From a virus (lineage: Duplodnaviria > Heunggongvirae > Uroviricota > Caudoviricetes), in the IMG/VR virus record IMGVR_UViG_2541047848_000001: DNA of 21,826 nucleotides; one strand, given 5' to 3'. Both the position numbers and the translations under genes were made by a program. The notes under the pieces are model-generated. The model saw only the letters and a list, made by a program, of their open reading frames with translations, was not told the DNA's origin and searched no databases. Of the stretch, positions 222 to 8,124 are shown piece by piece (position 1 is the first letter of the stretch; the number at the start of each line of letters is the position of its first letter).

Positions 222-306
222 AGTCAGAGATAACAATCAACTAATACTGTTTTGTTGATTTTTGCTTGTAATTGGCGTTCTGGTCTGAGTTTTGTGGAGT
301 AAGTTG

Positions 307-684
307 ATGCGTGATATTCAGATGGTTCTTGAGCGTTGGGGAGCGTGGGCGGCTAATAATCATGAAGATGTGACCTGGTCGTCCATTGCCGCCGGTTTTA
401 AGGGATTAATTCCTTCAAAAGTAAAATCTCGCCCACAATGTTGTGACGATGACGCGATGATCATTTGCGGGTGCATGGCCCGTCTGAAAAAGAACAACAG
501 CGATTTGCATGATTTATTGGTGGACTATTATGTCGGCGGCATGACTTTTATGGCGCTTGCACGTAAGCATGGGCGATCTGATTGTTGGGTTGGCAGGATG
601 CTTCAGAAAGCTGAGGGCGTAGTGGAGGGTATGCTGATGGTGTTGGATCTCCGATTGGAGATGGATGCTGATTGTTCGAAATAA
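307..684 (+). CDS. quuD: late-gene antitermination protein Q (phage 82/21 type)
   Basis: ORF-track 292..684; the likely start is ATG 307 ([14 protein letters not shown]...) with GGAG 7 nt upstream. Cys-rich CCDDD...ICGC motif typical of Q proteins. Sits after rusA-ylcG. Symbol assigned by resemblance to DLP12 quuD, from memory. Confidence 0.8.
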
Positions 685-696
685 TTAAAGGAAAAG

Positions 697-762
697 TTGC
701 TGTCTGATTGTCATTAGTCTAACATTTAAAATGTTGGAATCGCAACGTAGTTATTATCATAT
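697..762 (+). promoter_or_regulatory. candidate late promoter PR'/qut region downstream of Q
   Basis: Expected position for PR' (between the Q stop and the first terminator). Weak candidate hexamers: TTGCTG 697-702 with TAACAT 720-725, or TTGGAA 734-739 with TATCAT 755-760. Not resolvable by eye. Confidence 0.25.
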
Positions 763-784
763 AACAGCTTGTTTCCTGATTTAG

Positions 785-813
785 CCAGCCTCCCCAAAGG
801 CTGGTCTTTTTCT
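785..813 (+). terminator. intrinsic terminator (tR'-like) between Q and the convergent lipocalin gene
   Basis: CCAGCC (785-790), 8-nt loop, GGCTGG (799-804), then TCTTTTTCT. Lies about 100 nt after the Q stop and 27 nt before the 3' end of the minus-strand lipocalin gene. Confidence 0.5.
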
Positions 814-839
814 AATAAGTATTATTTCGGGTAGGGATT

Positions 840-1364
840 TTATTGTTTAACCCATAATAATTCATTGATATTGAATCCCAACTTTTGAGCGGTTCGCACA
901 TAGTCTGCTTTTACTTTATCTGGAATAGTTGGGGTCCTTGCCAGAATCCATAGGTATTCTCTGTTCGGACCACTGACAAGAGCATACTTATACTCATCAT
1001 CCAGTTTGATTACATTATAGCCACCATAGAAGGGGCCAAAAAACGAAACCTTCAATGCTGCAGTTTTAGTATCTCCAGTAAAGTATGCTTTACCTTCGCT
1101 CTCGCTCCATTTATTTTTCGTTGGATCGTATCCACGGTTAAGTACACGAATCCCTCCGTCGTTCCGTTTTCCATAAGTAGCGCTGACCTGTTCCAGACCA
1201 CGTTCGAACCGGTTCTCGAGGCGAGCTATTTCATACCATTTTCCGAGGTAGCGGTTGGCGTCAAAATTTGTAATCGGCTGCACACCTTTAGGTGGTGTCG
1301 GGGCCTTACATGCTATAAGAGTGAAAGAGAGTGCAATGCCAGTCAACACAGGCCATAACTTCAT
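840..1364 (-). CDS. lipocalin-family outer-membrane lipoprotein (Blc-like)
   Basis: 174 aa. Signal peptide with lipobox LIAC. Lipocalin signature NFDANRYLGKWYEIARLENRFERG and ...KVSFFGPFYGGYNVI... closely parallel bacterial lipocalin Blc. AGGA SD upstream of the start on the minus strand. The only convincing minus-strand gene in the window. Confidence 0.8.
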   Translation of the reverse strand: MKLWPVLTGIALSFTLIACKAPTPPKGVQPITNFDANRYLGKWYEIARLENRFERGLEQVSATYGKRNDGGIRVLNRGYDPTKNKWSESEGKAYFTGDTKTAALKVSFFGPFYGGYNVIKLDDEYKYALVSGPNREYLWILARTPTIPDKVKADYVRTAQKLGFNINELLWVKQ

Positions 1365-1556
1365 AATAAATCCTGTACTTTTGATAGTTGAGAGTAAGTA
1401 TGAAAGATAGATGATTACGACCGATCACTTAAAGAACTTTCATACTATATTAGGAATAGTCCATAACAGAAAAATTGTCAGTGATGACGCCAGAAAGGCA
1501 ATTTATTCCGTGCACTACACAGTTTATGTGTTAATGAATTAGTCAAGGGGGAGAAT

Positions 1557-2516
1557 ATGATAAAAAAACCTGTGATTGGAATCAGCGGTTGTTTGGCCGG
1601 TTCTGCTGTTCGTTTTGATGGTGGTCACAAAAGAGCTGACTTTTTAATGGACAAATTAGTGGAATGGGTAACATTCAGACCAGTATGTCCGGAAATGGCT
1701 ATAGGGCTGCCAGTTCCGCGTCCTGCTCTACGTCTTGTGCGCTCGATGCAAGGAAATATACGGATGTGTTTCAGCCACGACCAGAATGAGGATGTGACAG
1801 AGAGAATGACAGAGTTTAGTCGTTCTTATATGGACAAATTAAAGGATGTATCGGGGTTTGTGGTTTGTGCTAAATCTCCCAGCTGTGGCATGGAGCGCGT
1901 GCGTGTCTATGATGAAAATGGTAATCGAGGTCGTAAAGATGGAGTGGGACTATTTACGAGCACTTTGATGGAAAAGTTTTCCTGGCTACCGGTTGAAGAG
2001 GATGGGCGATTACATGATCCAGTGCTTCGTGAGAATTTTGTTGAAAGAGTTTTTGCTTTGCATGAGCTCAATCACCTTTACAAGGAGAAATTATCAAGAA
2101 GAGAGTTATTAGCTTTTCATAGTCGTTATAAGCTTCAGTTGTTGGCGCATAGTCAGGCAGGCTATAAAGATATGGGACCATTTGTGGCTGCAATACACGA
2201 GTGGGCGGACCTTGAATCATACTTTGAGGTGTATCGTGATAAGCTGATGGCGATTCTCAGAAAACCTGCATCACGTAAAAATCACACGAATGTGCTGATG
2301 CATATACAGGGGTATTTTAGTAACTACTTAAGTACACGCCAGCGTAAAGAGTTGAGCGAGGTTATACTTAACTATCGTTCTGGCACATTACCTCTTCTTG
2401 CGCCGTTGACTCTGCTGAAGCATTATCTGGGTGAGTATCCTAATGATTACTTGCTTACACAGAATTACTTCGATCCCTATCCGGACGAACTGGCTCTAAG
2501 ACTGATGGTAAATTAA
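1557..2516 (+). CDS. DUF523/DUF1722 fusion protein (YbgA-like C-terminal domain; TudS-like Cys-containing N-terminal domain)
   Basis: 319 aa. N-terminus MIKKPVIGISGCLAGSAVRFDGG with further Cys at CPEMA and CAKSPSCG, the pattern of DUF523 [4Fe-4S] proteins. C-terminal half resembles YbgA/DUF1722. Strong SD AAGGGGGAG before ATG 1557. Confidence 0.7.
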   Translation: MIKKPVIGISGCLAGSAVRFDGGHKRADFLMDKLVEWVTFRPVCPEMAIGLPVPRPALRLVRSMQGNIRMCFSHDQNEDVTERMTEFSRSYMDKLKDVSGFVVCAKSPSCGMERVRVYDENGNRGRKDGVGLFTSTLMEKFSWLPVEEDGRLHDPVLRENFVERVFALHELNHLYKEKLSRRELLAFHSRYKLQLLAHSQAGYKDMGPFVAAIHEWADLESYFEVYRDKLMAILRKPASRKNHTNVLMHIQGYFSNYLSTRQRKELSEVILNYRSGTLPLLAPLTLLKHYLGEYPNDYLLTQNYFDPYPDELALRLMVN

Positions 2517-2858
2517 TTGTATGCGATATCATCCAAAAGGATGAGTTCCTGCATGCAGGATATTTACAATCGTAAAAACTACACTATGATACCCAGAGTG
2601 TCAGTTTGTATAAAAACTCTGTTTACGCTGAAGAAACAATTGAGATGCAACTTAAAGTTGGTAAACATGCCAGTCAAAATATATAATATTATGATTCCAC
2701 GCAGCTATATATAATATAACAGATTGGTTTAATAATTTGTCTTTGTGAGTTAAATACATAATTTTATACTTGTGATGCAATGAAATTTTCCTTATTGTTG
2801 AACTGGCGAATATTGATTTTCCACCTATACTTACCTGGTGTAACCCCAATGATATCAG

Positions 2859-3599
2859 GTGGATAATATGCCATACATATGTTCTATCATTTTGGTGTTG
2901 AACTCGTTTGATGTCCGAATTGGTAAAGAAGATATTTTGTTTAAAAAAGGAAGTGCTGTTCTCATTGATTACAATTTAAAAGATTTTTTTTCATCAAATA
3001 TAGATCATGTAATGATCGTAGATGTTGAAGAGAAAACAGTTAATGATTTCTTTAAAAGCAACACACTCTCACCTTTTTCTGTAAGAAGGTTTTATCCGGC
3101 ATACTTGATGGTGGAATGTGAAGATTTTTCATTGTTAAAGAACTTGATTGCATGCTTGAATTGTGATGGCAGAACTGTGGATTTTGTTAGAAATCAAATA
3201 TCACTTGCATGTCTTGCTATCTTATCTTCAGAGAAAATAGTGCAAAGTTTTTTATTTGGATGTCTTAATAGTTTAGGAAGTAAAGTTAAGGCTATTATTC
3301 ACACGGATATATCTGCAGCATGGAGACTTTGTGATATATCTTCAAGACTGTATCTGAGTGAAAGTCTGTTAAAAAGAAAATTAAAGCACGAAGGCTTATC
3401 ATTTAGTAAGTTAATTCTTGAAGAGCGAATGGTGATGGCGGAAAGGTTATTAAGCTACAATTTATATTCTGTTGGAAAAGTTGCTGAGATATGCGGTTAT
3501 GAAAACACGTCATATTTTGTAAGTGTTTTCAGAAGGTATTTTGGTGTTCCTCCCCATCAATATTCATCAAGATTTTTTTTAGAAAAAGACATGATGTAA
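2859..3599 (+). CDS. AraC/XylS-family transcriptional regulator, AppY/EnvY-like
   Basis: 246 aa. C-terminal HTH region ...SESLLKRKLKHEGLSFSKLILEERMVMAERLL...GYENTSYFVSVFRRYFGVPPHQY parallels AppY/EnvY. N-terminus M..YICSI...NSFD also AppY-like. Gene and upstream region are strongly AT-rich. Confidence 0.8.
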   Translation: MDNMPYICSIILVLNSFDVRIGKEDILFKKGSAVLIDYNLKDFFSSNIDHVMIVDVEEKTVNDFFKSNTLSPFSVRRFYPAYLMVECEDFSLLKNLIACLNCDGRTVDFVRNQISLACLAILSSEKIVQSFLFGCLNSLGSKVKAIIHTDISAAWRLCDISSRLYLSESLLKRKLKHEGLSFSKLILEERMVMAERLLSYNLYSVGKVAEICGYENTSYFVSVFRRYFGVPPHQYSSRFFLEKDMM

Positions 3600-3786
3600 C
3601 GTGATGCGTTTTAATGATTTTGTAATTTTCGTATTTGATAATTGTATGATGCTTTCAGCTACGCCAGAATAATCGCGGCGTTTTTCTTTTTGAATAGATG
3701 TTCAAGCCTTACGCTAATGTAACTTCTATACCTTTCCTCTTCGTTCCGAACCGTGTACACCATCCGTTATTTGCGGAGGTGAGGCT

Positions 3787-4002
3787 ATGAAATCCATGGA
3801 TAAGTTAACAACGGGTGTCGCCTATGGCACCTCAGCAGGTAGTGCCGGTTACTGGTTTTTACAGCTGCTCGATAAAGTCACGCCCTCACAGTGGGCAGCA
3901 ATAGGTGTGCTGGGTAGCCTGGTATTTGGCCTGCTGACGTACCTGACAAACCTTTATTTCAAGATTAAAGAAGATAAGCGCAAGGCTGCGAGAGGTGAAT
4001 AA
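3787..4002 (+). CDS. essD: class II holin (phage 21 S-type pinholin) with dual-start motif
   Basis: 71 aa, [24 protein letters not shown]...; two TMDs; Met1/Met4 dual-start as in S21. SD GGAGGTGAGG upstream. Immediately precedes the endolysin. Confidence 0.9.
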
Positions 4003-4499
4003 TGCCTCCATCATTACGAAAAGCCGTTGCTGCTGCTATTGGTGGCGGAGCAATTGCTATAGCATCAGTGTTAATCACTGGCCCAAGTGGTAACGATGGT
4101 CTGGAAGGTGTCAGCTACATACCATACAAAGATATCGTTGGCGTATGGACTGTATGTCACGGGCATACAGGAAAAGACATCATTCCCGGTAAAACGTATA
4201 CCGAAGCAGAATGCAAAGCCCTCCTGAATAAAGACCTTGCCACGGTAGCCAGACAAATTAACCCGTACATCAAAGTCGATATACCGGAAACAACGCGCGG
4301 CGCTCTTTACTCGTTCGTCTATAACGTGGGCGCAGGCAATTTCAGAACATCTACTCTTCTTCGCAAAATAAACCAGGGCGATATCAAGGGCGCATGTGAC
4401 CAGCTACGTCGCTGGGCATACGCTGGCGGTAAGCAATGGAAAGGCCTGATGACTCGTCGTGAGATTGAGCGTGAGGTCTGTTTGTGGGGGCAACAATGA
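4002..4499 (+). CDS. rrrD: SAR endolysin (T4-lysozyme-like muramidase, R21 type)
   Basis: 165 aa. Gly/Ala-rich N-terminal signal-arrest-release segment [20 protein letters not shown]. Catalytic E-x8-D-x5-T spacing ([17 protein letters not shown]). Start overlaps the holin stop. Confidence 0.9.
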
Positions 4500-4960
4500 G
4501 CAGGGTAACCGCGATTATCTCCGCTCTGGTTATCTGCATCATCGTCTGCCTGTCATGGGCTGTTAATCATTACCGTGATAACGCCATTACCTACAAAGCC
4601 CAGCGCGACAAAAATGCCAGAGAACTGAAGCTGGCGAACGCGGCAATTACTGACATGCAGATGCGTCAGCGTGATGTTGCTGCGCTCGATGCAAAATACA
4701 CGAAGGAGTTAGCTGATGCGAAAGCTGAAAATGATGCTCTGCGTGATGATGTTGCCGCTGGTCGTCGTCGGTTGCACATCAAAGCAGTCTGTCAGTCAGT
4801 GCGTGAAGCCACCACCGCCTCCGGCGTGGATAATGCAGCCTCCCCCCGACTGGCAGACACCGCTGAACGGGATTATTTCACCCTCCGGGAACGACTGGTA
4901 ATGATGCAGGCCCAACTTGAAGGTGCTCAGCAATACATAACCGAGCAGTGTTTAAAGTAA
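4496..4960 (+). CDS. rzpD: Rz i-spanin
   Basis: ATG 4496 overlaps the endolysin stop (ATGA). N-terminal TMD then coiled-coil periplasmic domain. ORF-track start 4484 is an upstream GTG in the same frame. Confidence 0.85.
4716..4901 (+). CDS. rzoD: Rz1 o-spanin lipoprotein, embedded in Rz in the +1 frame
   Basis: 61 aa. Lipobox VVGC. Proline-rich [15 protein letters not shown]. Entirely nested within Rz. Confidence 0.85.
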
Positions 4961-5097
4961 AATCTTAACTACAATATGATTCATTTTGATGATTGTTTCA
5001 TAAGGAACAGTGAAGTAAGATCTAAGAGGAGTTAAATTTTATACAGTATAATCATAATATTGCAGCAAGGTGGTTATAATTGAAAGAATATTTAGAT

Positions 5098-6555
5098 ATG
5101 AATACATCTCATGTAAGAGTTGTTACTCATATGTGTGGGTTCCTGGTTTGGCTCTATAGTCTTTCAATGTTGCCACCAATGGTTGTAGCATTGTTTTATA
5201 AAGAAAAAAGCCTGTTCGTTTTCTTTATAACTTTCGTTATATTTTTTTGCATTGGTGGCGGAGCGTGGTATACAACTAAGAAATCTGGCATTCAATTACG
5301 TACCCGTGATGGGTTTATTATAATTGTAATGTTTTGGATTTTGTTTTCTGTTATTAGTGCATTCCCTTTATGGATTGACTCAGAACTTAATTTAACGTTC
5401 ATTGATGCTCTGTTTGAAGGGGTTTCTGGAATAACAACAACAGGAGCAACTGTAATTGATGATGTTAGTTCATTACCTCGGGCATATTTGTACTATCGGT
5501 CACAGTTAAATTTTATAGGTGGTTTAGGAGTTATTGTTCTGGCGGTTGCTGTATTGCCATTATTGGGTATTGGTGGTACAAAGCTTTATCAGTCAGAAAT
5601 GCCGGGGCCATTTAAGGATGACAAACTCACTCCCCGCCTGGCCGATACGTCACGGACACTGTGGATAACTTATTCTTTATTAGGTATTGCTTGTATTGTC
5701 TGTTATAGACTTGCAGGAATGCCTTTGTTTGATGCTATTTGTCACGGGATTTCCACAGTTTCGCTTGGTGGTTTCTCAACTCATAGCGAGAGTATCGGAT
5801 ATTTTAATAACTATTTGGTTGAGCTGGTGGCTGGTTCTTTTTCCCTGCTATCGGCTTTCAACTTCACTCTTTGGTATATTGTTATTAGCAGGAAAACGAT
5901 AAAACCTTTAATCAGAGATATTGAACTTCGTTTCTTTCTGTTAATAGCCTTAGGGGTGATCATTGTTACCTCTTTCCAGGTCTGGCATATAGGTATGTAT
6001 GACTTGCATGGAAGTTTTATTCATTCGTTTTTTCTTGCCAGCTCCATGCTCACTGATAATGGTTTAGCTACGCAGGATTATGCAAACTGGCCCACGCACA
6101 CGATAGTGTTTTTGCTGTCGTCAAGTTTCTTTGGGGGATGTATAGGTTCAACTTGTGGTGGAATTAAGTCACTTCGATTTCTTATACTTTTCAAACAAAG
6201 CAAACACGAGATAAATCAGCTTTCTCATCCCAGAGCGTTGTTGAGTGTAAATGTAGGAGGGAAGATAGTTACAGATCGTGTAATGAGGTCTGTATGGAGT
6301 TTCTTTTTTCTTTATACTCTCTTCACGGTGTTTTTTATACTGGTGTTAAATGGTATGGGATATGATTTTCTTACATCATTTGCAACAGTGGCTGCATGTA
6401 TTAATAATATGGGATTAGGTTTTGGGGCTACTGCATCGTCATTCGGAGTGCTTAATGACATTGCAAAATATTTAATGTGCATAGCTATGATTCTTGGTCG
6501 CCTTGAAATTTATCCTGTTATTATATTGTTTTCAGGTTTTTTTTGGCGCTCCTAA
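5098..6555 (+). CDS. trkG: Trk-system potassium uptake protein, TrkG/TrkH family
   Basis: Polytopic membrane protein with repeated pore-loop-like GxGG segments. 485 aa from ATG 5098, which is the TrkG length as I recall it. Position right after Rz/Rz1 is the known location of trkG in Rac. AT-rich. An in-frame TTG at 5080 has a better SD (see findings). Confidence 0.85.
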   Translation: MNTSHVRVVTHMCGFLVWLYSLSMLPPMVVALFYKEKSLFVFFITFVIFFCIGGGAWYTTKKSGIQLRTRDGFIIIVMFWILFSVISAFPLWIDSELNLTFIDALFEGVSGITTTGATVIDDVSSLPRAYLYYRSQLNFIGGLGVIVLAVAVLPLLGIGGTKLYQSEMPGPFKDDKLTPRLADTSRTLWITYSLLGIACIVCYRLAGMPLFDAICHGISTVSLGGFSTHSESIGYFNNYLVELVAGSFSLLSAFNFTLWYIVISRKTIKPLIRDIELRFFLLIALGVIIVTSFQVWHIGMYDLHGSFIHSFFLASSMLTDNGLATQDYANWPTHTIVFLLSSSFFGGCIGSTCGGIKSLRFLILFKQSKHEINQLSHPRALLSVNVGGKIVTDRVMRSVWSFFFLYTLFTVFFILVLNGMGYDFLTSFATVAACINNMGLGFGATASSFGVLNDIAKYLMCIAMILGRLEIYPVIILFSGFFWRS

Positions 6556-6692: not shown

Positions 6693-7481
6693 ATGAGCGA
6701 GAAATTAAAGATAGTCTATCGCCCATTACAAGAATTGTCACCGTATGCGCACAACGCCAGGACGCACAGTACTGAGCAGGTGGCACAACTGGTAGAAAGT
6801 ATTAAGCAATTCGGCTGGACTAATCCGGTGCTGATTGACGAAAAGGGCGAAATTATTGCGGGTCACGGTCGTGTTATGGCGGCTGAAATGCTCAAAATGG
6901 ATTCTGTTCCGGTCATTGTTCTGTCTGGCCTGACGGATGAGCAGAAAAAGGCGTACCGCCTGGCAGATAATCGCCTACCGATGAATGCTGGCTGGGATGA
7001 AGATCTGTTGCGGATGGAGCTGTCGGACCTAATCAATGCTGATTTTGATGTCTCCCTGACAGACTTCGGCCCGACAGAAATTGATGAACTGTTGACGGAT
7101 GTTTTGCCCGGTACAGGAAATAAGGAGGAGCCGTATACGACGAAAATTGATACGCCTGTTTATGAGCCGTCGGGCGGTAAACCGGATATCAGTGAACTGT
7201 ACGACGATACGAAAACTCAGGAGCTGATCAGCCGGATACGTTCGGCGTCCCTTGAGCCTGATATTGAGAAATTCCTCCTGTGTGCGGCAGAACGTCACAC
7301 GGTGTTTAATTTCAGCAGAATTGCGGACTATTACGCTCATGCCCCCGCTGAAATTCAGTGCCTTTTCGAGGAGTCGGCGCTGGTGATCATTGATTATCAG
7401 CAGGCTATTGAAAATGGATTTGTCCGAATGACGCAGCGCATGGTGGCGATCATGCATAGCGGGGAGGAGGAATATGCGTGA
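6693..7481 (+). CDS. ParB-like nuclease domain (ParB/sulfiredoxin fold) protein
   Basis: 262 aa. N-terminal ParB signature ...IVYRPLQELSPYAHNARTHSTEQVAQLVESIKQFGWTNPVLIDEKGEIIAGHGRVMAA. Acidic C-terminal half. Stop overlaps the start of the next gene. Confidence 0.8.
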   Translation: MSEKLKIVYRPLQELSPYAHNARTHSTEQVAQLVESIKQFGWTNPVLIDEKGEIIAGHGRVMAAEMLKMDSVPVIVLSGLTDEQKKAYRLADNRLPMNAGWDEDLLRMELSDLINADFDVSLTDFGPTEIDELLTDVLPGTGNKEEPYTTKIDTPVYEPSGGKPDISELYDDTKTQELISRIRSASLEPDIEKFLLCAAERHTVFNFSRIADYYAHAPAEIQCLFEESALVIIDYQQAIENGFVRMTQRMVAIMHSGEEEYA

Positions 7482-8124
7482 TGATTTTTGCGCCTTTATT
7501 CTGACTCACGGGCGACCGGACAAAGTTCTGACTTACCGGACGTTGCGTCGTGCTGGCTATACCGGGAAAATTTTTATCGTTGTTGATGATGAAGATAAGA
7601 CACGGCATCAGTACATGGCTGAATTTGGTGAACAGGTGCTGGTATTTTCCAAAGCAGATATTGCCAGTCGTTTTGACGAAGCCGATAATTTTGGTGACCG
7701 CCGCTCAATTTTTTACGCCCGTAATGCCTGTTTCGACCTGGCAAAACTGGTCGGGTGTAAATACTTCATTCAGCTCGATGATGATTATCACGAGTTCCAG
7801 TTTCGGGTGGATCGCAACTATGACCAGGCCTATTTCCCGATAAGGAAACTGGATGCGATCCTTTCTGAAATGCTGGCGTATTACGAATCAATACCCGCGC
7901 TTTCCATCGCTATGTCGCAGGGCGGGGATTTTCTTGGTGACAATGGCGGCCATGCTTCGTGGGTGAAACGCAAGGCAATGAACAGCTTTATCTGTTCGGT
8001 TGATCGACCGTTCTCATTCATGGGGCGCATTAACGAGGATGTGAATACGTACACGAATCTCGGTCGCCGTGGTGAATTGTTTATGACGATCGGTGCTGTC
8101 CAGTTAGGGCAGAAACAGACGTAG
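7474..8124 (+). CDS. DxD-motif nucleotide-sugar-transferase-like (GT-A fold-like) protein; possibly interrupted by an in-frame TAG
   Basis: ATG 7474 lies inside the ParB-like stop region, with SD GGGGAGGAGGAA just upstream. Motifs AFILTHGRPD...IFIVVDDED...IQLDDDY resemble the N-terminal strand, DD and DxD elements of GT-A/nucleotidyltransferase folds. An ORF in the same frame resumes 15 nt after the TAG (8140..8337). Confidence 0.5.
   Translation: MRDDFCAFILTHGRPDKVLTYRTLRRAGYTGKIFIVVDDEDKTRHQYMAEFGEQVLVFSKADIASRFDEADNFGDRRSIFYARNACFDLAKLVGCKYFIQLDDDYHEFQFRVDRNYDQAYFPIRKLDAILSEMLAYYESIPALSIAMSQGGDFLGDNGGHASWVKRKAMNSFICSVDRPFSFMGRINEDVNTYTNLGRRGELFMTIGAVQLGQKQT

Follow-up and report, generated by a model that had tools for sequence, protein, structure and literature searches.

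A prophage gene of Escherichia coli predicted to encode RudS, a tRNA 4-thiouridine desulfidase, within a fixed late-region cassette

Fusions of a TudS domain with a DUF1722 domain were named RudS by Jamontas et al. (NAR 2024; PMC11417400) and convert 4-thiouridine (s4U) at tRNA position 8 or 9 into uridine, in living cells as well as in vitro. For activity, the catalytic Glu, Ser and Arg of the TudS domain are needed, as is a [4Fe-4S] cluster, and the tRNA anticodon arm is bound by the DUF1722 domain (PMC11417400). Six RudS orthologues have been expressed, including 'RudS_vir' (H3V29_gp66 of Escherichia phage 1H12, NC_049947), and all six lowered tRNA s4U, by 4.7- to 26-fold, whereas stand-alone TudS and YbgA (DUF1722 alone) did not (PMC11417400). 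Overexpression of RudS_vir in E. coli BL21(DE3) resulted in less s4U in tRNA; its protein level was relatively high, yet its tRNA desulfidation was lower than that of the other orthologues (PMC11417400). None of the six supported growth on 2-thiouracil. On 4-thiouracil, RudS_vir gave delayed growth of a uracil auxotroph with the shortest lag among the RudS proteins tested, and no RudS matched TudS in supporting growth on thiouracils (PMC11417400). The combination of lower tRNA desulfidation and the shortest 4-thiouracil lag suggests that the substrate preference of RudS_vir may be somewhat shifted.

The substrate s4U8 is made in E. coli by ThiI (PMC11417400). It is the UVA chromophore of tRNA, and its crosslinking to C13 impairs charging, raises ppGpp and delays growth, according to the literature quoted. 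The orthologue characterised both biochemically and mutationally is RudS_KT (PP_0741 of Pseudomonas putida KT2440), whose overexpression in E. coli is quoted to shorten the UVA growth delay from about 105 to about 60 minutes. Its catalytic residues Glu51, Arg60, Ser111 and Ser113 and its tRNA-binding residues Arg24, Tyr25, Asn26, Ser243 and Arg244 were validated by mutation, and its Y25F mutant is wild-type-like (PMC11417400). The RudS_KT gene lies in a light-induced operon with LitR and photolyase; the rudS genes of E. cloacae and Salmonella lie beside MerR-family regulators, and rudS is typically found in light-responsive clusters (PMC11417400). The Salmonella LT2 protein ORF319/STM1389, called RudS_ST, is one of the chromosomal enterobacterial RudS proteins. 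Single-domain relatives of both halves are known as well. TudS (PDB 6Z92, 6Z93, 6Z96 and 6ZW9) has about 150-166 aa, and its substrates are free thiouracil and s4UMP; YbgA (E. coli b0707) is a stand-alone DUF1722 protein, without a catalytic domain, encoded beside the photolyase gene phr. E. coli has been said to lack RudS, both in the RudS paper (PMC11417400) and in a July 2026 review, and this was used to explain differences in UVA response between species.

Here, we describe a rudS homologue in the late region of a lambdoid prophage. The window, i.e. the whole stretch of DNA that was analysed (21,826 nt, IMG/VR record IMGVR_UViG_2541047848_000001), matches E. coli chromosomes over the full length of its first 7 kb at 99.9% identity, and the same gene is also found on sequenced phage genomes. 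The order of the late region is Q, lipocalin, rudS, AraC-like gene, lysis genes and trkG, then terminase, portal and head genes, as follows.

292..684, plus strand: Q-type late-gene antiterminator (PF06530 Phage_antitermQ, E 2.5e-51)
697..725, plus strand: candidate late promoter, pR'-like (TTGCTG, 17-nt spacer, TAACAT; read by eye)
784..812, plus strand: predicted intrinsic terminator, tR'-like (terminator scan, hairpin fold)
840..1364, minus strand: Blc-type outer-membrane lipocalin lipoprotein (PF08212, E 1.3e-43)
1557..2516, plus strand: rudS, predicted tRNA 4-thiouridine desulfidase, 319 aa, ATG start (domains and homology to RudS_vir)
1575..2003, plus strand: TudS catalytic domain of rudS, aa 7-149 (PF04463), with Glu46, Arg55, Ser107 and Ser109 as predicted catalytic residues
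1590-1592, 1686-1688 and 1884-1886, plus strand: codons of the predicted cluster ligands Cys12, Cys44 and Cys110, in the TudS domain of rudS
2130..2483, plus strand: DUF1722 helical domain of rudS, aa 192-309, containing Ser239 and Arg240 (PF08349)
2868..3599, plus strand: AraC-family regulator, YdeO/AppY/GadX-like (PF12833 and PF00165)
3787..4002, plus strand: holin (PF04971)
4002..4499, plus strand: lysozyme (PF00959)
4484..4960, plus strand: Rz (PF03245)
4716..4901, plus strand: Rz1-like ORF embedded in Rz (ORF list)
5080..6555: trkG, between the lysis cassette and the terminase, portal and head genes

The lipocalin belongs to the Blc subfamily of NCBIfam (NF007786, 315 bits against a cut-off of 267). 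The AraC-like gene, the third of the cassette, has a GC content of about 32%; the best NCBIfam match of its product is YdeO, at 127 bits well below the cut-off of 348, and in PHROGs it corresponds to phrog_1450, for which no function is annotated. Across the whole window, neither Rfam (at the gathering threshold) nor a tRNA scan gave a match, and a PADLOC scan gave no defence-system match among the cassette proteins. The sole PADLOC match was a methyltransferase-like one, on a ParB-like ORF further downstream.

Judged by its sequence, the product of the window ORF is an intact prophage copy of RudS, a [4Fe-4S] eraser of tRNA s4U. A phage-database search with the gene matched H3V29_gp66 of phage 1H12, that is RudS_vir itself, and the two 319-aa proteins are 93% identical without gaps; none of their 23 amino-acid differences falls at a ligand or catalytic position. 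Both genes occupy the same slot (Q, lipocalin, rudS, a 243-aa regulator, holin), although the window prophage, unlike 1H12, has trkG in addition and differs in its head and packaging module. RudS was defined by a TudS domain followed by DUF1722, each with E < 0.001 and more than 80 aligned residues (PMC11417400), and the window protein shows this arrangement, with PF04463 (2-thiouracil desulfurase, the former DUF523) covering aa 7-149 (E 4.5e-40; 137 bits, Pfam cut-off 34.7), then PF08349 (DUF1722) covering aa 192-309 (E 5.8e-41; 140 bits, Pfam cut-off 22.5). RudS_KT shares this domain order. The full-length family of the window protein in PHROGs v4, phrog_3275, is annotated 'unknown function'. 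A sequence-only reading of this DNA had proposed a two-domain DUF523/DUF1722 protein with a TudS-like cysteine pattern, carried as prophage cargo, and each of these points is borne out: both domains score far above their cut-offs, all the motifs that it quoted are present, with the three ligand cysteines invariant among 39 aligned sequences, and rudS is placed in a lambdoid prophage, after Q and before the lysis genes. Its further statement that the fusion has no described role is outdated, since RudS has been published and the 93% identical orthologue of phage 1H12 assayed (PMC11417400). The family, the mechanism and this close phage orthologue are therefore already known.

The cluster ligands and the catalytic residues of RudS are retained. 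Among 39 aligned sequences, those of the window protein and of 38 homologues 70-76% identical to it, Cys12, Cys44, Cys110, Glu46, Arg55 and Ser107 are invariant, as are Arg19, Phe20, Asp21, Ser239 and Arg240, and Ser109 is kept in at least 90% of the homologues. The three cysteines occupy the positions of the RudS_vir cluster ligands, Cys12, Cys44 and Cys110 (PMC11417400 Table 1). They lie in the motifs GISGCLAG (aa 8-15, with Cys12), CPEMA (aa 44-48, with Cys44 and Glu46) and CAKSPSCG (aa 104-111, with Cys104, Ser107, Ser109 and Cys110); Cys104 is conserved, but it is absent from the RudS_vir ligands in the same table. Correspondence with RudS_KT was derived from the numbering offsets of the three cysteines and from motif context (CPE, SPSC), not from an alignment, and pairs C17, C49 and C114 of RudS_KT with C12, C44 and C110, E51 with E46, R60 with R55, and S111 and S113 with S107 and S109. 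By offset only, R24 would correspond to R19 and S243/R244 to S239/R240. Tyr25 and Asn26 would, again by offset, be replaced by Phe20 and Asp21, two differences in residue type.

The catalytic domain is predicted to have a TudS-like fold. The alignment behind the AlphaFold2 model was shallow, comprising 39 sequences of at least 70% identity, and the model has a mean pLDDT of 62.6, with values mostly of 70-92 in the N-domain, below 50 for residues 13-29 and mostly below 60 in the poorly modelled DUF1722 half, so that it was used for matching the fold of the N-domain only. In a Foldseek search against the PDB, ranks 1-5 were all TudS (probability 1.0, target-normalised TM 0.66-0.70, 26-27% identity), and the next match had a probability of 0.57; the comparison with TudS suggested in the sequence-only reading thus came out positive. 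TudS was also the sole significant PDB match by sequence (E 2.3e-4). Whether started from the protein alone or from a 6-sequence profile, the PDB sequence searches reached no further than the first ~60 residues in their alignment to TudS, which leaves out the third cysteine, and this gap is filled by the full-domain coverage in Pfam and by the fold search. The N-domain thus shares both fold and cluster-binding motif with TudS.

Two simpler labels were considered and rejected. The window protein is not a stand-alone TudS: it has a second domain and 319 aa, its identity to TudS is 26-27%, and its orthologue behaves unlike TudS on thiouracils. Neither is it a YbgA equivalog, as the corresponding NCBIfam model (NF007549) covers only the C-terminal half (aa 160-315), where its score of 190.8 bits falls short of the cut-off of 237. 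Alignment of this half with the YbgA profile accounts for the RefSeq name 'YbgA family protein', which is a domain-level name.

The gene is widespread in E. coli. It was matched in 1136 of 5426 complete E. coli genomes, with at least 80% of its length covered in 1064 of them; this prevalence of ~21% comes from a collection biased to clinical and veterinary isolates and is not a population estimate. The lipocalin was matched in 1135 and the AraC-like gene, as two allele groups, in 1033 of the same genomes. About 79% of the genomes searched have no rudS, and in some the gene is truncated or disrupted by an insertion sequence, e.g. by IS1 in strain YSP8-1. In BL21, Q and the lipocalin are present, but rudS is reduced by IS3 to its first 147 nt. 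Within phages and prophages, the cassette is fixed in its layout. The order Q, conserved intergenic region, lipocalin on the opposite strand, rudS, AraC-like gene and holin is found at fixed distances in 74 of 80 IMG/VR contigs, and Q lies 876 bp upstream of rudS in all but one of the 80. The same order occurs in phages 1H12 and IdasGreatGrand, and in E. coli prophages with either DLP12-type or Qin-type lysis modules. The coding sequences of the window-type and 1H12-type alleles differ at 7.7% of bases (dS ~0.29, dN ~0.03), and the resulting dN/dS of ~0.11 indicates purifying selection within phages.

The cassette appears to have a chromosomal ancestry. All matches listed in a genome scan for rudS homologues were from Enterobacterales, and among them the nearest relatives outside E. 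coli are 319-aa proteins encoded on the chromosomes of Citrobacter, Serratia, Enterobacter, Klebsiella and others, with 70-76% identity to the window protein. Phage and chromosomal genes differ in their surroundings: phage rudS has Q and a terminator upstream and the AraC-like gene downstream, whereas the chromosomal genes have other partners. Upstream of rudS and divergent from it, 20 of the chromosomal enterobacterial loci fetched have a lipocalin with 72-81% identity to its phage counterpart (Enterobacter, Leclercia, Buttiauxella, Kosakonia, Lelliottia, Raoultella, Kluyvera and others). The two genes adjoin directly in Kluyvera, and in Enterobacter they are separated by an MlrA/MerR-type regulator and a transthyretin-like gene, a setting that fits the light-responsive contexts described for rudS (PMC11417400). 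From this divergent chromosomal pair, the phage appears to have captured its lipocalin and rudS together, and the captured pair appears, on sequence comparison, to have lost the MerR-type regulator and gained the low-GC AraC-like gene. When the lipocalin-rudS spacer of the phage alleles was aligned with the Kluyvera chromosomal spacers, neither homology nor a promoter footprint could be recognised. Citrobacter braakii has rudS at the end of a SnoaL/SDR/amine-oxidase/DUF1365/CFA-synthase/DUF2878/DUF3833 operon. A 175-aa unannotated ORF of the Citrobacter rudS operon, which has no significant Pfam match, was rejected as the source of the phage lipocalin, to which it shows zero similarity.

The position of rudS suggests when it is read. 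The hairpin at 784-812 begins about 100 nt past the stop codon of Q and has a folding energy of -14.2 kcal/mol (z = -3.6 against shuffled sequences); six alleles have the same stem, with a T run after it, in a region that is 97% conserved. By analogy, we infer that it is a Q-overridden terminator, the counterpart of lambda tR'. In lambdoid phages, pR' sits just after Q and before this terminator. The sequence TTGCTG-17-TAACAT at 697-725, found by eye and not called by the promoter scan, is a candidate for a weak pR'-like late promoter at that place. The terminator scan predicted no plus-strand terminator between 812 and 5100, and rudS is on the same strand as the lysis genes. Lying after Q and a conserved terminator, with none further before the lysis genes, rudS should be part of the Q-antiterminated late transcript and, like other morons of this slot, be transcribed along with the lysis genes by Q-modified polymerase, a timing taken from gene order alone. 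No promoter of its own was assigned to rudS, because the promoter scan of 600-5100 gave no excess over shuffled sequence (15 sites versus 12.3 expected); in the 192-bp divergent spacer between lipocalin and rudS it found no convincing sigma-70 promoter. Two promoter-like sites with 10 of 12 matching positions (2563-2590 and 2658-2687) lie upstream of the AraC-like gene. It is possible that rudS has its own promoter and is expressed in the lysogen. Regulation by light is not expected, since the phage copy, unlike the RudS_KT gene, has no MerR/LitR neighbour.

Taken together, the best explanation of the locus, and in our judgement a highly probable one, is that the gene encodes a RudS that erases s4U from tRNA; it would probably be transcribed late, with a likely benefit to translation under UVA. 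According to the mechanism published for RudS and TudS, Cys12, Cys44 and Cys110 of the TudS domain would hold a [4Fe-4S] cluster, the cluster would bind 4-thiouridine at position 8 (or 9) of the tRNA by its sulfur, through the free fourth iron, and the sulfur would be removed hydrolytically with the help of Glu46, Ser107, Ser109 and Arg55, leaving uridine. The DUF1722 helical domain would grip the tRNA anticodon arm, by which a small-molecule desulfidase becomes a tRNA enzyme. With less s4U, UVA should form fewer s4U8-C13 crosslinks, fewer tRNAs should stay uncharged and ppGpp should be lower, and the benefit would most likely be continued translation in sunlit cells, either for the lysogen or for phage late proteins after induction. 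The sequence-only reading had also offered DNA-damage tolerance as a role. Its general link to light and UV stands, whereas DNA-damage tolerance as such does not, as the damage concerned would be UVA photodamage of tRNA (the s4U8-C13 crosslink, with growth delay and stringent response).

Whether the phage or the lysogen gains can be weighed separately. A lambdoid phage may use RudS, made from the late operon or in the lysogen, to strip s4U from host tRNA, so that UVA cannot crosslink the tRNA, set off the stringent response and choke phage replication and late protein synthesis, a tentative idea that we consider rather unlikely. UVA or sunlight often accompanies the UV that induces prophages. 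RudS is not known to mend existing crosslinks, so that an enzyme made only late in infection may help too late. The alternative that survives best is that a functional RudS serves lysogenic conversion instead of lytic growth, expressed before induction in the lysogen together with the lipocalin from a promoter of its own, possibly under control of the AraC-like protein; this is possible, if somewhat short of probable. It is favoured by the existence of lipocalin and rudS as a stress-type chromosomal module in Enterobacter, Kluyvera, Buttiauxella and others, by the opposite orientation of the lipocalin, which needs its own promoter, and by the near-identical genome counts of the three genes (1136, 1135 and 1033). 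The gene is also kept in defective prophages such as Qin-like elements, and the UVA growth delay of E. coli was shortened by RudS_KT. However, the 192-bp spacer offers no convincing sigma-70 promoter, and the slot after Q and tR' is the classic site of late-transcribed morons. If lysogenic conversion were the role, the genes would form a module of tolerance to light or oxidative stress for E. coli outside the gut.

It is improbable that rudS is selectively neutral cargo, acquired by a lambdoid phage as a piece of chromosome and without benefit to phage or host. The gene is clearly dispensable, as its IS1 disruption in YSP8-1, the 147-nt remnant in BL21 and its absence from about 79% of complete E. 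coli genomes indicate. Against neutrality, dN/dS is about 0.11 at a dS of about 0.29, most matching genomes (1064 of 1136) cover at least 80% of the gene, every catalytic residue is retained, and the arrangement is fixed across prophages with different flanking modules; the low dN/dS and the fixed cassette in particular weaken this reading, as far as sequence comparison goes. That the protein, like stand-alone TudS, acts mainly on free 2- or 4-thiouracil or on thiolated nucleotides, to detoxify them or to salvage pyrimidines, is very improbable. In favour are the TudS-family N-domain, with the same ligands and fold, and the 4-thiouracil lag of RudS_vir, the shortest among the RudS proteins tested. 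The published growth tests contradict it, as no RudS supported growth in the manner of TudS and none grew on 2-thiouracil, and tRNA s4U was lowered by the fusions but not by TudS alone (PMC11417400); the DUF1722 domain, moreover, is strongly conserved here and would be unneeded by a small-molecule enzyme. Of the modified-nucleobase detoxification or salvage suggested in the sequence-only reading, the delayed growth of RudS_vir on 4-thiouracil leaves at best a side activity, and by analogy free thiouracil would be at most a side substrate of the window RudS.

With RudS erasing s4U from tRNA as the preferred reading, what is added here is not new biochemistry, as the enzyme itself is settled. 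Our search of the literature on RudS or DUF1722 with phage or prophage brought up nothing on a role in phages apart from the RudS paper (PMC11417400), and in that literature the prevalence in E. coli, the three-gene moron cassette and its chromosomal ancestry appear to be unpublished. These annotations are a useful and testable lead, not a surprise. The presence of a virtually identical prophage rudS in 1136 of 5426 genomes makes the RudS trait strain-dependent within E. coli, and BL21, the expression host of the RudS paper, itself carries a remnant of the gene. The gene occupies the late-operon slot of Stx and other morons; the fixed three-gene cassette to which it belongs, of apparently chromosomal ancestry, offers a simple genetic system for the effects of a tRNA eraser at native levels. 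If the proposed role is true, RudS and the co-transferred lipocalin would represent a phage-borne photoprotection module, and s4U level and UVA response would be strain-variable and horizontally transferred traits in about a fifth of sequenced E. coli.

Matches to RudS, the tRNA 4-thiouridine (s4U) desulfidase, in Enterobacterales form two clades, one with approximately 70–76% identity to the window protein and a length of 319 aa, in which the phage rudS falls, and one with approximately 56–61% identity and a length of approximately 315 aa. A single genome can carry two paralogues, as in Citrobacter werkmanii NBRC 105721, where they are 76% and 59% identical to the window protein (loci L013 and L080). 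In Salmonella and in metagenome contigs (L006–L008), a 74% identical rudS adjoins ttcA, the Rac attachment region in E. coli K-12. The neighbourhood of these copies includes an integrase fragment and a DUF1367 phage gene, and lacks both the lipocalin and the AraC-like gene of the phage cassette; they look like decayed prophages in which rudS has been retained. Enterobacterial-type rudS was also found on contigs assigned to non-enterobacterial metagenome bins. An 'uncultured Clostridiales' contig (L016) carries an enterobacterial rudS (74% identity), and a contig of a 'Candidatus Nanosynbacter' metagenome-assembled genome (L047) carries rudS, the AraC-like gene and the holin gene at 94%, 99% and 100% identity, respectively. 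Binning contamination, rather than a true host range, is the most likely source of this E. coli-type material.

The strain BL21 retains Q and the lipocalin gene, while its rudS is cut off by an IS3 element and reduced to the first 147 nt (L011, NZ_CP053601.1 1558651–1558797). Jamontas et al. (2024; PMC11417400) overexpressed RudS and ran their UVA tests in BL21(DE3), and the IS3 truncation therefore makes this host rudS-null by deletion and not by ancestral absence.

The genes of the window prophage that accompany rudS and are considered here are as follows:

840..1364, minus strand: Blc-type lipocalin lipoprotein gene, the divergent partner of rudS
2868..3599, plus strand: AraC-family regulator gene, between rudS and the holin gene, GC approximately 32%
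4716..4901, plus strand: 61-aa ORF, inside the Rz gene in another frame
5080..6555, plus strand: TrkG/TrkH-type potassium transporter, 491 aa, directly after Rz and before the packaging genes
6693..7481, plus strand: ParB-like nuclease domain protein, between trkG and the small terminase
7474..8124, plus strand: ORF matching phrog_842, after the ParB-like ORF and before the small terminase

The AraC-family regulator belongs to phrog_1450, a PHROG family of unknown function, and its top match in the profile search was YdeO, far under the cut-off, followed by HilD and GadX. Its gene occurs in E. coli genomes as two allele groups, at identities of at least 99% (n = 584) and 80–90% (n = 431). The protein resembles the prophage-encoded regulators of the AppY/PatE type, which rewire host acid and stationary-phase genes.

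The transporter gene, which joins rudS as a second piece of cargo in the prophage, is named trkG in RefSeq and has a GC content of approximately 37–39%. Its product reaches 453 bits with the TrkH equivalog profile, for which the cut-off is 866, and shows a full-length match to phrog_1916. At its N-terminus, the ParB-like protein matches DNA methyltransferases of phages, with an E-value of 1e-37 for PADLOC MTase_II. The label of phrog_842, beta-glucosyl-HMC-alpha-glucosyltransferase, is unexpected for a lambdoid prophage. The 61-aa ORF, with its lipoprotein-like signal LVVVGC and proline-rich tail, lies within Rz in the arrangement usual for the Rz1 outer-membrane spanin.

The lipocalin gene stands divergent to rudS in phages and also in the chromosomes of Enterobacter, Kluyvera, Buttiauxella, Kosakonia and others, where the lipocalins beside rudS are 72–81% identical to the phage lipocalin (L019, L022–L029, L040–L044 and other loci). 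In Enterobacter, an MlrA/MerR-type regulator and a transthyretin-like gene sit between the two. The literature found describes no tie of the lipocalin to s4U or light. Lipocalin and rudS together look like an old functional unit.
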